Origin: a virus
Taxonomy: Duplodnaviria > Heunggongvirae > Uroviricota > Caudoviricetes
IMG/VR virus record: IMGVR_UViG_2617270955_000003
Length of the DNA: 20,009 nucleotides
Direction: 5' to 3' (one strand)
A program made the position numbers and the translations under genes. A model generated the notes under the pieces. That model did not search any database and was not told where the DNA came from. It saw only the letters and a list, made by a program, of their open reading frames with translations. Below, in pieces: positions 17,075-20,009 of the stretch. Each line of letters begins with the position of its first letter. Position 1 is the first letter of the stretch.

Positions 17075-17779
17075 ATGGCTACATCGACAGTAATTCCAGG
17101 AGACATCACCACGTTAAAGGGAGATGTCAGTAAAGCCAAGGAAGATATTTCCTCAATTAACGGAAAAGTATCAACGCTTCAGGCTGATATGACCAGTGCA
17201 AAGCAGGATATCAGCACCAGATACACAAAAACTGAAGTTGATAATAAGCTGAAAAACAAACTGGAAGTGAACGCTCTGGAAAGCGGTCGTTATGGTGGAG
17301 ATTTTTACCCGTTGACTGGCCGTGAAGCGTTTTATTTGTGGGGATTGGGCACGACTACAGCGGCGGCAAACCTTTATCTTAATCCTGACCCCGCAATTTC
17401 GTCTGTGCTGCGGTCAACATCGTCTATCCGCTATAAACATTCAGTAGAGACAATAGATTCAGAGCACGCCGATCTCATTTTCAGGATGCGCCCTGTGTGG
17501 TACAGGTCACAATGCGAAAATGACAGGCGTGACTGGGGATTCTACGGATTGATTGCCGAGGAAGTAGGAGAAATTGCCCCTCAGTTTGTACACTGGCGAC
17601 CAGCTAACGAAGATGATGCACCGGAAGCTATTTCCAGCAATGGCCTTGTTGCCGAAGGTGTAATGTACGAACGTCTGGTTGTTCCACTGATTCACCATAT
17701 CCAGAAGCTGACTGAAAGAGTTGATGAACTTGAGTCAGAATTAAAGTTGTTATCCGTTTCCCGAAGCGATATCGGATAA
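17075..17779 (+). CDS. Tail-fibre-like protein with C-terminal intramolecular-chaperone (peptidase S74-like) domain
   Basis: 234 aa; GGGAG RBS; N-terminal periodic coiled-coil-like segment; C-terminal ...SSIRYKHSVETIDSEHADLIFRMRPVWY...WGFYGLIAEEVGEIAPQFV...NGLVAEGVMYERLVVPLIHHIQKLTERVDELESELK resembles the autoproteolytic chaperone domains of phage fibres and tailspikes. Confidence 0.65.
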   Translation: MATSTVIPGDITTLKGDVSKAKEDISSINGKVSTLQADMTSAKQDISTRYTKTEVDNKLKNKLEVNALESGRYGGDFYPLTGREAFYLWGLGTTTAAANLYLNPDPAISSVLRSTSSIRYKHSVETIDSEHADLIFRMRPVWYRSQCENDRRDWGFYGLIAEEVGEIAPQFVHWRPANEDDAPEAISSNGLVAEGVMYERLVVPLIHHIQKLTERVDELESELKLLSVSRSDIG

Positions 17780-17789
17780 AGGAGGAGTA

Positions 17790-18077
17790 ATGGATATAAG
17801 CCCCTTACTTCATGCACTTTGTGCTGTGGCTGCGCAAACACTGGTTGGTCTTTTTACCGGAAACTGGGCTTACGGAGCGATAGCCGGTTGTACGTTCTTC
17901 ATTGCGCGTGAACACACCCAGGCAGAATATCGCTGGATCGAAATGTTCGGGCATGGCAAGCGAATGAATATGCCGTGGTGGGGCGGTTTTGATCCGCGCG
18001 CGTGGGATGTGACAAGCCTGATGGATTTTGCTGTGCCGGTGGTGGCGTGTCTGCTGATCTGGATGTTGATCCGTTAA
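17790..18077 (+). CDS. Hypothetical small membrane protein (95 aa, 2-3 predicted TM segments)
   Basis: Strong RBS AAGGAGGAG 7 nt upstream; hydrophobic N-terminal and C-terminal segments; last gene before attP. Confidence 0.6.
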   Translation: MDISPLLHALCAVAAQTLVGLFTGNWAYGAIAGCTFFIAREHTQAEYRWIEMFGHGKRMNMPWWGGFDPRAWDVTSLMDFAVPVVACLLIWMLIR

Positions 18078-18084
18078 ATATAAA

Positions 18085-18120
18085 AGCCGCAGTAACTTGC
18101 CATGATAGGATACTGCGGCT
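18085..18120 (+). repeat. Inverted repeat / hairpin downstream of the membrane-protein ORF
   Basis: AGCCGCAGTA ... TACTGCGGCT (10-bp arms, 16-nt loop); no following T-tract, so terminator function is uncertain. Confidence 0.3.
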
Positions 18121-18317
18121 GGCTGGTTAACTTTCGATAGTGCGAGTATTGAATGATTTCCAGCCGTTACTGATTTTATATAACGGCAGTGGAATTATTC
18201 AACACACAGGCAAAACACAGGCAAAACGGAATAAGCTGAGAAAAAAAGCGTGCTTTCCCAATCTGGGGCAAATCACGTCTGAATGACACCTGAAAACAGG
18301 TGGTGGACTCAAGAAGG

Positions 18318-18395
18318 CTTGGAATATTCTTCTTTAATGTTATGTAATTCATTGATTTTTCGTGTACGATTTTAAGACATTTATTCCAAGAAGAA
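18318..18395 (+). promoter_or_regulatory. Candidate integrase arm-type binding sites (P arm): one direct and one inverted CTTGGAATA motif
   Basis: CTTGGAATATTCTTC at 18318..18332 and its inverted relative TTATTCCAAGAAGAA at 18381..18395, upstream of the tRNA-like core. Confidence 0.5.
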
Positions 18396-18429
18396 TTTTT
18401 AACTCTTTGATTTTTCTACTCTGTATCAT

Positions 18430-18491
18430 CGGTCTCGAAAACCGGAGTGGGGGCAACTCCACCGGGGGTTCAAATCCCCCTCTCTCCGCCA
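18430..18491 (+). tRNA. Partial tRNA-Ser(CGA) (serU-like) 3' segment, anticodon stem to CCA; probable att core
   Basis: Anticodon loop CTCGAAA (anticodon CGA), long variable arm, T-arm GGGGG-TTCAAAT-CCCCC, acceptor 3' strand TCTCTCC, discriminator G and CCA at 18489..18491; no matching 5' acceptor/D-arm upstream, so not a complete gene. Confidence 0.75.
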
Positions 18492-18536
18492 AAATTCAAT
18501 CACTTACACATCATTAAGTCAGTGACAAAAATCACA

Positions 18537-18572
18537 CTTGGAATTACTTGGAATATTTTCTTGGAATATTTT
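18537..18572 (+). promoter_or_regulatory. Candidate integrase arm-type binding sites (P' arm): three direct CTTGGAAT(T/A) repeats
   Basis: CTTGGAATTA (18537..18546), CTTGGAATATTTT (18547..18559), CTTGGAATATTTT (18560..18572); they overlap the last about 10 codons of int. Confidence 0.55.
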
Positions 18573-19569
18573 CAGGTAACGGGACATCAAGTGTTGGTGA
18601 AACTTTAACCTTCCTGTCATAGATTAGCACTTGCCCTTCGGTTTTGTGACCAGAGAAAAGTTGCTTATCCCGGCTGCTTCCTTCATAGTCTGAAATTCCT
18701 TTCGCCTTCAGATCATGAAAGGTGAAGTCGGTTAAAATACCTGAAATTTTTCCAGCACGATTTCTTGCATCTACCCACATTTCGTTAAAGCCTTTGTACA
18801 TATATCGGTTGCCGTATTGATTGCTGATCACATAGGCAGATTTTGGTAACTGTTTTGCTTTTTCGATCGCTGCCTGTAATCGTGGACTCCATGCTTTTAT
18901 CTGTTTTTTTCCGGTTTTCCCTTGCTGGATGAATATCCCGTCGTTTCCAATCTGTTCCCATTTCAGCGATAACACATCGGAAACCCTCGCTGCACACAGA
19001 TAGGCAATTTCCATTGCGATAAAAACAGGAAGAGGTGCAACGCTTAATACTGCCTGGTATTCTTTGTCGGTTACATATCGTTCGCGGTTTTTGGCCTTGA
19101 ATTTACTTACACCTGCACATGGGTTAGCCTTCACGTACCCTCGCTCATACCCCCAACTGTAAACACGGGACATACTGCTTTTTTCATGGTTGGCTTGCGT
19201 TTTACTCTGCTCCCCTCTTTTGTCCATGTATCGACGGATGTGTTCTGGTTTTATGGAATCCGCTGGTACCTTACCGAATACGGCAAGCAACTTTTTTTGA
19301 TGTTGCAGATAATCTTTTTGTGTTCTTGGACTAAGGTCACTGTAATAGGCGCTGGCGAGGAATTTTTCCCACAAGCGACCGAATGTCATTGCACGATCGC
19401 GATTATTTACAGTTTCCTCATACTTTTTCCATAAAGCAGCTAAACCATCCTTGATGGCGGTTAGTGTGACAGATTCTCTGGATGTTGGTTTCCATACATA
19501 ACTATATTTATTTGGGTATACATTTGGAGGTAATTTTTCGTGTTCAGGATTTTTCCTTCGTCTTCCCAT
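18544..19569 (-). CDS. int: Tyrosine integrase (lambda Int family)
   Basis: 341 aa; lambda-like arm-binding N-terminus MGRRRKNPEHEKLPPNVY; catalytic-region signatures ...HDLKAKG... and ...GHKTEGQVLIYDRK (candidate Tyr); adjacent to attP; start overlaps the xis-like stop (TGATG). Confidence 0.95.
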   Translation of the reverse strand: MGRRRKNPEHEKLPPNVYPNKYSYVWKPTSRESVTLTAIKDGLAALWKKYEETVNNRDRAMTFGRLWEKFLASAYYSDLSPRTQKDYLQHQKKLLAVFGKVPADSIKPEHIRRYMDKRGEQSKTQANHEKSSMSRVYSWGYERGYVKANPCAGVSKFKAKNRERYVTDKEYQAVLSVAPLPVFIAMEIAYLCAARVSDVLSLKWEQIGNDGIFIQQGKTGKKQIKAWSPRLQAAIEKAKQLPKSAYVISNQYGNRYMYKGFNEMWVDARNRAGKISGILTDFTFHDLKAKGISDYEGSSRDKQLFSGHKTEGQVLIYDRKVKVSPTLDVPLPENIPRKYSK

Positions 19570-19772
19570 CAGATCGCACCAAAATTCGGCTCTACCTCGC
19601 GTGGTGGTAAAGTTTTATTGCAGGTAAATAGATCCCGGCTGACAATCGGTTTGCCACTACGATTGGTATAGAACGGAAGCCCGTTTTCTATTAACCATTT
19701 TCGCTGGTGGCTTGCATATTTGCAGCCCGTTAATATTAGCAATTCATCTTCGGTTAAAAATAAGCTGCTCAT
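19569..19772 (-). CDS. Excisionase-like protein (DUF4224-like small DNA-binding protein)
   Basis: 67 aa, MSSLFLTEDELLILTGCKY...WLIENGLPF...; immediately upstream of and coupled to int, the usual xis position. Confidence 0.7.
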   Translation of the reverse strand: MSSLFLTEDELLILTGCKYASHQRKWLIENGLPFYTNRSGKPIVSRDLFTCNKTLPPREVEPNFGAI

Positions 19773-19789
19773 AGCTATATCTCATAACC

Positions 19790-19815
19790 GCCGCTAACTA
19801 TATACGGTTAGCGGC
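19790..19815 (+). repeat. Perfect 9-bp inverted repeat (GCCGCTAAC-N8-GTTAGCGGC) between the exonuclease stop and the xis-like start
   Basis: Read directly from the sequence; no T-tract on either strand. Confidence 0.5.
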
Positions 19816-19830
19816 AATTAGGGTTGAACA

Positions 19831-20009
19831 TTAAAAATCAGCCTGACTCGGGATCAGTTTTTGCCAGATAGCTGAAACGTATTTTGCCTGGTAACGAGCG
19901 TCATCAAGTGCATTATGGCGCTCACCTTCGAATGGAATAGCCGTTCTGGCATCGAAGTCTATGGCTTTCCCCAGCTCAACGATTGTGCGTACATCGCGAT
20001 CGTTGTAGT
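19831..20009 (-). CDS. DnaQ-like (DEDDh) 3'-5' exonuclease, C-terminal part; 5' end beyond the window
   Basis: Minus-strand frame open from the window edge to the stop at 19831..19833; translation ...DFDARTAIPFEGERHNALDDARYQAKYVSAIWQKL... contains an Exo III-like H-x-A-L-x-D-A motif. Confidence 0.55.
   Translation of the reverse strand, partial: YNDRDVRTIVELGKAIDFDARTAIPFEGERHNALDDARYQAKYVSAIWQKLIPSQADF

Follow-up and report, generated by a model that had tools for sequence, protein, structure and literature searches.

The locus raises the question of why a phage genome should carry part of a serine tRNA gene next to its integrase gene, and whether the DNA around this segment forms a site at which the phage can enter its host chromosome. 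A sequence-only reading of the window, by which we mean the whole 20,009-nt stretch of DNA analysed here, had proposed that the tRNA segment and a set of short repeats on both sides of it have the layout of a phage attP, and had predicted integration at a serU-like tRNA-Ser(CGA) gene. Our comparisons with E. coli chromosomes and related prophages indicate that positions 18307-18568, together with int and xis, very probably constitute the whole integration module of a temperate, lambdoid E. coli phage that targets serU.

The core of the site (18430-18491, + strand) is a 62-nt segment, CGGTCTCGAAAACCGGAGTGGGGGCAACTCCACCGGGGGTTCAAATCCCCCTCTCTCCGCCA, that equals positions 29-90 of the 90-nt K-12 serU gene except for two bases, G in the phage versus A in K-12 at 18449, and C versus T at 18460. 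In the alignment, the block of identity with K-12 attB covers exactly 18430-18491: it ends at the CCA, and similarity is lost on both sides. The first base of the core corresponds to the second base of the anticodon stem, and the segment contains the anticodon stem-loop, with the anticodon CGA at 18436-18438, and continues through the variable arm, T-arm and 3' acceptor strand to the CCA. The two differing bases correspond to tRNA positions 48 and 59, pairing partners in the variable-arm stem, where the phage copy has a compensated change from A-U to G-C. ARAGORN called no tRNA gene in the 20-kb window, nor in the excised fragment, and 18430-18491 is therefore a fragment rather than a gene. 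The alignment and this null result agree with the original description of a serine tRNA 3' segment devoid of its 5' half, and leave no complete tRNA gene in the window that would speak against it. Two sub-threshold Rfam matches obtained at a permissive threshold, one to the 3' end of tmRNA (17.9 bits) and the other, on the opposite strand, to a plastid 3'UTR family, stem from the tRNA-like T-arm and acceptor of the fragment and were not retained as RNA genes in their own right.

In K-12, serU sits between yodB and mtfA, and both recombinant junctions of an integration at this gene occur in nature, in support of the proposed attP layout. The attL junction, composed of mtfA, a complete serU, and the P' arm and int of the window, is found in 1144 of 5426 complete E. 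coli genomes (with at least 80% of a 401-nt query covered), and the enterobacterial serU shares the 3' segment as predicted. The other prophage end, attR, for which the sequence-only reading had suggested a search, lies beside yodB (tail-fibre side, P arm, partial tRNA, yodB) in 697 to 838 of the 5426 genomes according to the query, the lower count being obtained with a 401-nt query and the higher one with a 142-nt query of the junction, each covered to at least 80%. In the single lysogens 201609 and IZSBS22 the whole succession can be followed, from mtfA, serU, int, xis and exo to the tail fibre, the partial tRNA and yodB. At serU in O157:H7 PV15-279, the window's P' arm and int are present with an IS element interrupting, and NCTC9064 retains only an attR remnant beside IS elements.

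Matches to the site in phage collections are split at the core. The record vB_EcoS-689R5 is a prophage excerpt that holds attL (mtfA and a complete serU, followed by a P' arm and int that are 100% identical to the window), SerU-LTIIb holds attR (P arm and partial tRNA, then yodB), and in ev099 the P arm and core are followed by a K-12 flank. We considered that the site might be a chimera of two unrelated phages, with a left arm from ev099/mEp332 and a right arm from 689R5, and rejected this possibility because the split records are attR or attL junctions with host flank, and because both arms share the same repeat motif and occur together in eight viral contigs. In all eight of these IMG/VR contigs the site is unsplit, and its five arm sites and two marker bases are intact. 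An unsplit site is also present in 11 of the 5426 complete E. coli chromosomes, and in noe1104 it is enclosed by two copies of a single prophage arranged head to tail.

The two bases that differ between phage and host provide markers for the crossover (18449 and 18460; G..C in the phage, A..T in the host). All unsplit sites carry G..C (the window, noe1104 and 8/8 IMG/VR contigs), and the empty K-12 attB carries A..T. Among six genomes whose junction sequences were read, four lysogens (201609, IZSBS22, UTAK-13 and O157:H7 PV15-279) have G..C at attL and A..T at attR, that is, phage alleles at one end and host alleles at the other, which places strand exchange within 18430-18448 (+ strand; CGGTCTCGAAAACCGGAGT), the segment that corresponds to the anticodon stem-loop. 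From this allele mapping, the crossover is placeable in the anticodon stem-loop, an interval narrower than the whole 62 bp. SCU-115 was examined as a possible counter-example and set aside, as it carries G..C at both ends and is uninformative; strain 4/4, whose attL is A..T, is likewise uninformative and not contradictory. When alleles were counted with synthetic 142-nt junction queries at 99% identity or more, attL carried G..C in 1077 genomes versus A..T in 70, and attR carried G..C in 108 of 838, counts that agree with the mapping. These 108 genomes, along with the G..C at both ends of SCU-115, indicate that some hosts or phage variants share alleles. Within the interval, we infer that the overlap is the 7-nt anticodon loop CTCGAAA (18434-18440), with the stem arms CGGT/ACCG(G) as inverted core-type sites, a choice that follows from how such integrases generally work.

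The core is flanked by five putative arm-type sites whose sequence is unrelated to its own. On the tail-gene side, P1 (18318-18326, + strand, -112 from the core start) and the inverted P2 (18382-18390, - strand) are exact copies of CTTGGAATA; on the int side, P'2 (18547-18555) and P'3 (18560-18568), both on the + strand, are exact as well, and P'1 (18537-18545, + strand) reads CTTGGAATT, with one mismatch. The initial count of five motif copies hence holds for four exact ones, the fifth being a variant, and a pattern search confirmed their arrangement around the core, with one direct and one inverted copy upstream and three direct copies downstream. The shorter sequence CTTGGAAT is exact in 5/5 repeats. 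P'1-P'3 form a tandem with start-to-start spacings of 10 and 13 nt that runs into the 3' end of int, as had been observed: the int ORF (18544-19569, - strand) has its TAA at 18544-18546, so that P'1 overlaps the stop codon and P'2 and P'3 fall within the last int codons, where they also encode the Int tail ...ENIPRKYSK.

This clustering of exact copies is not due to chance. All four exact copies of CTTGGAATA in the 20-kb window are confined to 251 bp, and no other 9-mer of the window has four non-overlapping copies inside 260 bp. When one mismatch is allowed, the whole window contains 7 matches versus 4.1 expected, a count that is not significant by itself, the only further such matches being those at 1632 and 19325, both isolated. 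The argument for the repeats is thus carried by the exact clustering and by comparative evidence, and not by the one-mismatch count.

The comparative evidence comes from five full attPs, those of the window, Klebsiella KpF5, Klebsiella P7641, Citrobacter Chris1 and Salmonella ST64B, to which we added four prophage junctions in which the int-side triplet could be seen at corresponding offsets. In all five full attPs a direct and an inverted repeat precede the core and three direct repeats follow it, at about -147, -84, +71, +81 and +94 from the T-arm and within 1-2 bp of the window's positions; a P1 repeat is also found at the matching offset in 8/8 IMG/VR attPs. The motif at these fixed positions changes, being CTTGGAATA in the window, TGAGAAAA in KpF5, P7641 and ST64B, and TTGGTATA in Chris1. 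The inverted P2 copy is an exact TGAGAAAA in KpF5 and P7641, and has one mismatch in Chris1 and ST64B as judged by reading the sequences. Among the added junctions, three lie at tRNA-Ser(UGA), with int-side repeats consisting of three (C/G)TTGGAAT(A/G) in Salmonella (L017), three CTTAGAAT in Klebsiella (L018) and TTGGTATA in Dickeya (L020); the fourth, from E. coli (L019), lies at serU and has two exact copies and one diverged copy of CTTAGAAT. The motifs other than that of the window among related sites are TTGGTATA, CTTAGAATA and TGAGAAAA.

The motif appears to track the N-terminal domain of Int. The Salmonella L017 Int has an N-domain 70% identical to that of the window and the same CTTGGAATA triplet, yet the prophage sits at tRNA-Ser(UGA), so the motif follows the N-domain and not the target. 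Conversely, the Int N-termini of ST64B, KpF5 and P7641 are 86-100% identical to one another and only 35% identical to that of the window, whereas the rest of these proteins is 62-68% identical to the window's Int (for ST64B, 35-39% in the N-domain and 62-67% in the rest). Motif distance correlates with N-domain identity (Spearman -0.71), but not with identity over the rest of Int (-0.22) and only weakly with that of Xis (-0.37); as the 28 pairs drawn from 8 sites are not independent and the register of TGAGAAAA is arbitrary, this correlation serves as supporting evidence only. Taken together, the fixed offsets and the motif's relation to the N-domain support the assignment of the five repeats as predicted arm-type sites of Int. 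The Ints of ST64B, KpF5 and P7641 are shorter and end before the repeats, and the triplet is still kept. The anticodon stem-loops of serU and of the UGA tRNA-Ser differ at the first anticodon base only, a likeness that would fit a shared core-binding specificity with the target set by the attP overlap.

The product of int (18544-19569, - strand) is a 341-aa lambda-type tyrosine integrase, and this exact protein represents a cluster of 1013 sequences. Pfam identifies Phage_integrase (PF00589) at 1.7e-11, above the curated cut-off, along with Phage_int_M and SAM-like domains, and the top PDB matches are structures of lambda Int (1z1b at E 1.2e-12, phmmer). The alignment with lambda Int (1z1b) begins at residue 1 of both proteins, with MGRRR..LPPN(V/L)Y, from which it follows that the arm-binding domain of lambda Int has a counterpart here; by homology, Int carries an N-terminal arm-binding domain. 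In an alignment of 16 family members with lambda Int, the catalytic residues R195, K218, H285, H308 and Y317 are conserved. The protein departs from the strict R-K-H-R-H/W-Y signature at the position of lambda R311 (ArgII), which is K288 in the motif HDLK. HDLK is present in all 16 aligned family members and in four further integrases, and the Lys at ArgII is thus a family trait; judged by profile, the membership of Int in the tyrosine recombinase superfamily stands.

RefSeq labels int as 'frameshifted' in noe1104, 201609, IZSBS22, SCU-115 and strain 4/4. The int DNA of 201609 is identical to that of the window yet carries this label, and the ORF is uninterrupted for 341 aa; homologues from E. 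albertii, Siccibacter, Salmonella and Klebsiella have equal length and the same C-terminal ...YSK. The label is probably wrong and masks an active gene.

The start of int is overlapped by the end of a second gene (19569-19772, - strand), whose 67-aa product, a DUF4224 protein (Pfam PF13986 at 3.9e-15), is a probable excisionase. This role is suggested by the gene at the matching position in ST64B (sb29), which is annotated as excisionase, and a DUF4224 gene precedes int in all four added prophages (L017-L020). No Xis-binding repeats were identified in attP.

A scan with the IHF consensus WATCAANNNNTTR yielded candidate sites in each of the three intervals between repeats and core. An H1-like site, AATCAATGAATTA (18345-18357, - strand), lies between P1 and P2, and an H2-like site, AATCAAAGAGTTA (18400-18412, - strand), between P2 and the core; these are the only two exact matches to the consensus in 20 kb, and both fall in the P arm. 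An H'-like site, ATTCAATCACTTA (18494-18506, + strand), with one mismatch, directly follows the CCA. The candidate H' occurs at +63 with the identical single mismatch in 5/5 attPs compared, while the candidate H1 is found within one mismatch in 3/5 (KpF5 and Chris1 sharing the window's offset) and the candidate H2 in 2/5 (Chris1 sharing the window's offset). These positions suggest that IHF may act at H1, H2 and H'.

These elements can be assembled into a mechanism. The 62-bp core is a copy, carried by the phage, of the last two-thirds (3' part) of the host's serU. The central and catalytic domains of Int would bind the anticodon-stem arms, an inverted pair, and strands would be exchanged within or next to the 7-nt anticodon loop, and certainly within 18430-18448. 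The N-terminal domain of Int would meanwhile occupy the five CTTGGAATA arm sites, of which P1 and P2 lie towards the tail genes and P'1-P'3 towards int, and bending of the DNA by IHF at H1, H2 and H' would lead to the recombination complex. Integration generates an attL in which the host 5' part of serU is joined to the phage 3' part and followed by P' and int, and an attR made of the P arm and the partial tRNA followed by yodB. As the site is split in this way, the lysogen keeps a working serU whose 3' part is phage-derived, with G-C in place of A-U in the variable arm. ARAGORN still calls a tRNA-Ser(CGA) in the rebuilt lysogen gene, whose folding energy is slightly more favourable than that of the K-12 gene (-42.6 versus -40.6 kcal/mol). 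Excision with the help of the DUF4224 protein would restore attP and attB.

Some other explanations have to be weighed against this one. The window's site could be an attP-like junction between two tandem prophages at serU in a chromosome instead of the attP of a free phage, in which case its function would be the same. Unsplit sites do occur in chromosomes, as in the 11 cases above, one terminase protein accession is found on both sides of the site in noe1104, and a 601-nt query spanning the site is covered to at least 80% by no record of the phage collection. However, the site is also unsplit in eight IMG/VR viral contigs, tail genes are followed by attP, int, xis and exo as is normal for vegetative lambdoid genomes, identity between the window and noe1104 is only about 97%, and the 20 kb of the window reach neither prophage end, so that we regard a tandem origin as rather unlikely, though a serious possibility. 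That the site is a relic, with int a pseudogene and an att site that no longer works, appears very improbable. The 'frameshifted' labels in five strains, including 201609 with the window's own int DNA, and the Lys at the ArgII position might be read in this sense, but the 341-aa ORF is uninterrupted, with its length and ...YSK end conserved across genera, HDLK is present in every aligned homologue, and the five arm sites and markers are intact in the 8 viral contigs. Moreover, the precise junctions found in roughly one E. coli genome in five and the existence of tandem lysogens imply recent activity.

Two further alternatives concern parts of the mechanism. The motif CTTGGAATA might be bound by something other than the Int N-domain, such as the DUF4224 Xis or a host factor, or the downstream triplet might be a by-product of int codons. 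P'2 and P'3 indeed encode the end of Int (...NIPRKYSK), and Xis identity shows the weak trend with motif similarity mentioned above (rho -0.37). Against this, two copies lie at conserved offsets in non-coding DNA across the core, the positions are constant where the motif varies, the strongest correlation is with the Int N-domain, and ST64B, KpF5 and P7641 keep the triplet even though their Int ends before it. The 2+3 sites interleaved with candidate IHF sites also match the lambda arm-type pattern, whereas the Xis sites of lambda are confined to one arm, and a different binder or a coding by-product is in our view very unlikely. Some tRNA-targeting integrases use the T-loop or the 3' end of the tRNA gene, and strand exchange there instead of in the anticodon stem-loop could also give rise to the 70 attL junctions with A..T and the 108 attR junctions with G..C. 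But 4/4 genomes with differing ends have phage alleles at attL and host alleles at attR, SCU-115, the only attR-GC genome inspected, carries G..C at attL as well, and the combination of A..T at attL with G..C at attR was seen in no inspected genome; a crossover near the 3' end, which would in addition leave 40 bp of upstream identity unexplained, has very little probability.

The overall plan of the site is that of lambda, whose attP is arranged as P1-H1-P2-X-F-H2-C-O-C'-H'-P'1-P'2-P'3. Both systems have an integrase with two kinds of site (here predicted), homologous from residue 1; two arm sites on one side and three in tandem beside int (here putative); IHF-consensus sequences between P1 and P2, P2 and core, and core and P'1 (here candidate sites); a site of about 250 bp; and the gene order attP, int, xis, exo. 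They differ in that the window's core is a 62-bp fragment of a tRNA gene versus a 15-bp intergenic core in lambda, its arm motif is unrelated to that of lambda, P'2 and P'3 are part of the int reading frame, and its Int shares only about 22-24% identity with that of lambda and has Lys at the Arg311 position. The probable Xis of the window, unlike that of lambda, is a DUF4224 protein. In the window just 9 bp separate P2 and H2, which leaves no room there for Xis or Fis sites.

Integration into tRNA genes falls into sublocation classes, among which are integrases that target the anticodon loop. The window's site resembles these in that the phage copy reaches from the anticodon stem to the tRNA 3' terminus, symmetric stem arms surround a 7-nt loop, and the tRNA gene is rebuilt on integration; nothing in it is unusual for the class, its own family targeting serU (CGA) or tRNA-Ser(UGA). 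The closest named phage relative is ST64B, which has the same target gene, five repeats at matching offsets, H' in the same place and a DUF4224-type excisionase gene before int, and whose Int is 58.7% identical to that of the window. ST64B differs in its arm motif, TGAGAAAA versus CTTGGAATA, in the low identity of the Int N-domain given above, in an Int of 329 aa that stops before the repeats, and in a core that follows the Salmonella serU. The insertion of ST64B at serU has been noted (PMC10100743), and lambdoid prophages occur repeatedly at serU in STEC O121:H19 and O145:H28 (PMC8767318, PMC7067040). The latter prophages share the locus, but the papers give the locus and not the anatomy of the att site, and in the literature searched we found no description of serU-phage arm sites or of a crossover position.

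Systems of this type are well understood, serU was already known as a prophage target for related phages, and the accepted picture of such systems is unchanged. What is added here are the putative arm sites, the candidate IHF sites, the mapped crossover interval and the change of motif across the family. They provide a sequence-level map, from arm sites and likely IHF sites to a 19-bp crossover interval and the boundary of the module, for one of the commonest E. coli prophage integration modules, found in about 21% of the complete genomes, O157:H7 among them, and they allow the ends of prophages at serU to be defined exactly. Over a thousand sequenced strains express a serU tRNA with a phage-derived 3' part, including the compensated base pair. 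The family comparison also supplies pairs of arm motif and N-domain for the study of arm-site specificity. On a more speculative note, it is conceivable, although we would not count on it, that the family is built of interchangeable parts: a conserved body for catalysis and core binding, which recognises the anticodon stem-loop common to tRNA-Ser genes and has Lys in place of the second catalytic Arg, swappable N-domains matched to at least four motifs (CTTGGAATA, CTTAGAATA, TTGGTATA and TGAGAAAA), and a choice between serU and the UGA gene made mainly by one base of the overlap that attP carries. If this were true, one could read the arm code off the sequence, and serU phages that share a host but differ in arm motif would be insulated from each other in recombination.

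Comparison of the IMG/VR contigs with an intact attP also locates the outer (left) edge of the conserved attP-int module at 18307-18317. In 5/8 of these contigs the stretch that resembles the window begins at 18307, 11 nt ahead of P1, and to the left of this position the phages diverge. A promoter and terminator scan of 17700-20009 returned nothing above shuffled expectation. A 58-aa ORF that overlaps P1 (18176-18352, - strand) has no Pfam match and was treated as spurious; in some records it is labelled 'hypothetical protein' or 'capsid protein'.

In tyrosine recombinases, the second catalytic arginine is represented by Arg311 of lambda Int. In both alignments of Int homologues (A2 and A3), the residue standing at this position in the window's 341-aa integrase is K288 (codon 18706-18708, context FHDLKAKG), and a lysine was likewise observed in all homologues of the two alignments, down to 55% identity. 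The integrase family is clearly active in nature, and the lysine at the Arg311 position is therefore a natural Arg-to-Lys active-site variant.

The same integrase carries the label 'frameshifted' in RefSeq, where the feature stretches to 28 nt past the tRNA, equivalent to 18519-19569 in the window. Features of this type are found at 20290-21340 in the retrieved locus of E. coli noe1104 (L004), and in three further loci (L006, 471-1521; L007, 48489-49539; L012, 8596-9646). In strain 201609 the int DNA shows no difference from the unbroken 341-aa ORF of the window, the C-terminal ...YSK of the integrase is kept across genera, and the 100% and 97% protein clusters of Int have members from non-NCBI sources only. 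The label is probably a systematic annotation artefact touching many E. coli genomes. A second annotation concerns a 58-aa ORF on the minus strand (18176-18352), which overlaps the arm-type site P1; the phage record ev099 labels it a hypothetical protein, and several RefSeq genomes apparently call it 'capsid protein'. This ORF had no Pfam match, and is probably not a gene.

The regions of two IHF-consensus-like sites, H1 in the P arm (18334-18360) and H' in the P' arm (18491-18517), form an inverted repeat of 27 nt that is 81% complementary. This repeat exceeds the IHF consensus in length, and could correspond either to extended IHF contacts or to sites for another protein, for example Xis. 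Likeness also extends to the host: in K-12, the flank formed by the first 16 nt after the CCA of serU, CTTTATCAATGACTTA, includes a perfect IHF consensus, TATCAATGACTTA, and is similar to the phage H' region, AAATTCAATCACTTA (18492-18506). Moreover, BLAST alignments to empty sites run on for ~15 nt into the region after the serU CCA, and at another E. coli prophage junction at serU with a related integrase (L019) the phage arm equals the host flank over ~17 nt. These similarities suggest that phage and host once shared an older, longer block of sequence past the CCA.

Junctions of the attR type were also found in records deposited as phage genomes. In ev099 (LR597635.1), positions 3084-3400 hold a window-type P arm and a partial tRNA, followed by the DNA that lies downstream of serU in the K-12 chromosome; beyond this junction are a gene for a regulator of the AraC family, genes for transposases, and a lambda-type int. 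mEp332 and PhiR70_1 likewise hold an attR-type junction. Either these phages seem to contain DNA from bacteria or from prophage ends, or their records are given in prophage coordinates.

The unsplit site was found in 11 complete genomes. In noe1104 (NZ_CM192165.1), two copies of one prophage lie head-to-tail at serU, and a terminase large subunit with one and the same protein accession (WP_001140892.1) is encoded on either side of the unsplit attP; this pair may represent true tandem lysogeny or else an assembly duplication. The serU prophage of E. coli O157:H7 PV15-279 (L015, regions 5100-5210 and 48222-49749) has a window-type P' arm and int, the latter split by an IS1203-family element, together with an attR in which the P arm is diverged and core identity begins one base later (AGGTCTCG). 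It has probably become fixed at this locus.

Just past attP as seen from int, a GC-rich 10-bp hairpin followed by UUUUAUAUUU is located on the minus strand (18087-18122; -19.1 kcal/mol, z = -2.8), directly after the stop of a plus-strand ORF (17790-18077). In lambda, this position just past attP from int is that of the tI/sib element. DNA near the hairpin (~18101-18181) is common to many lambdoid phages whose integrases are different ones, among them HK97, phiP27 and Stx phages.
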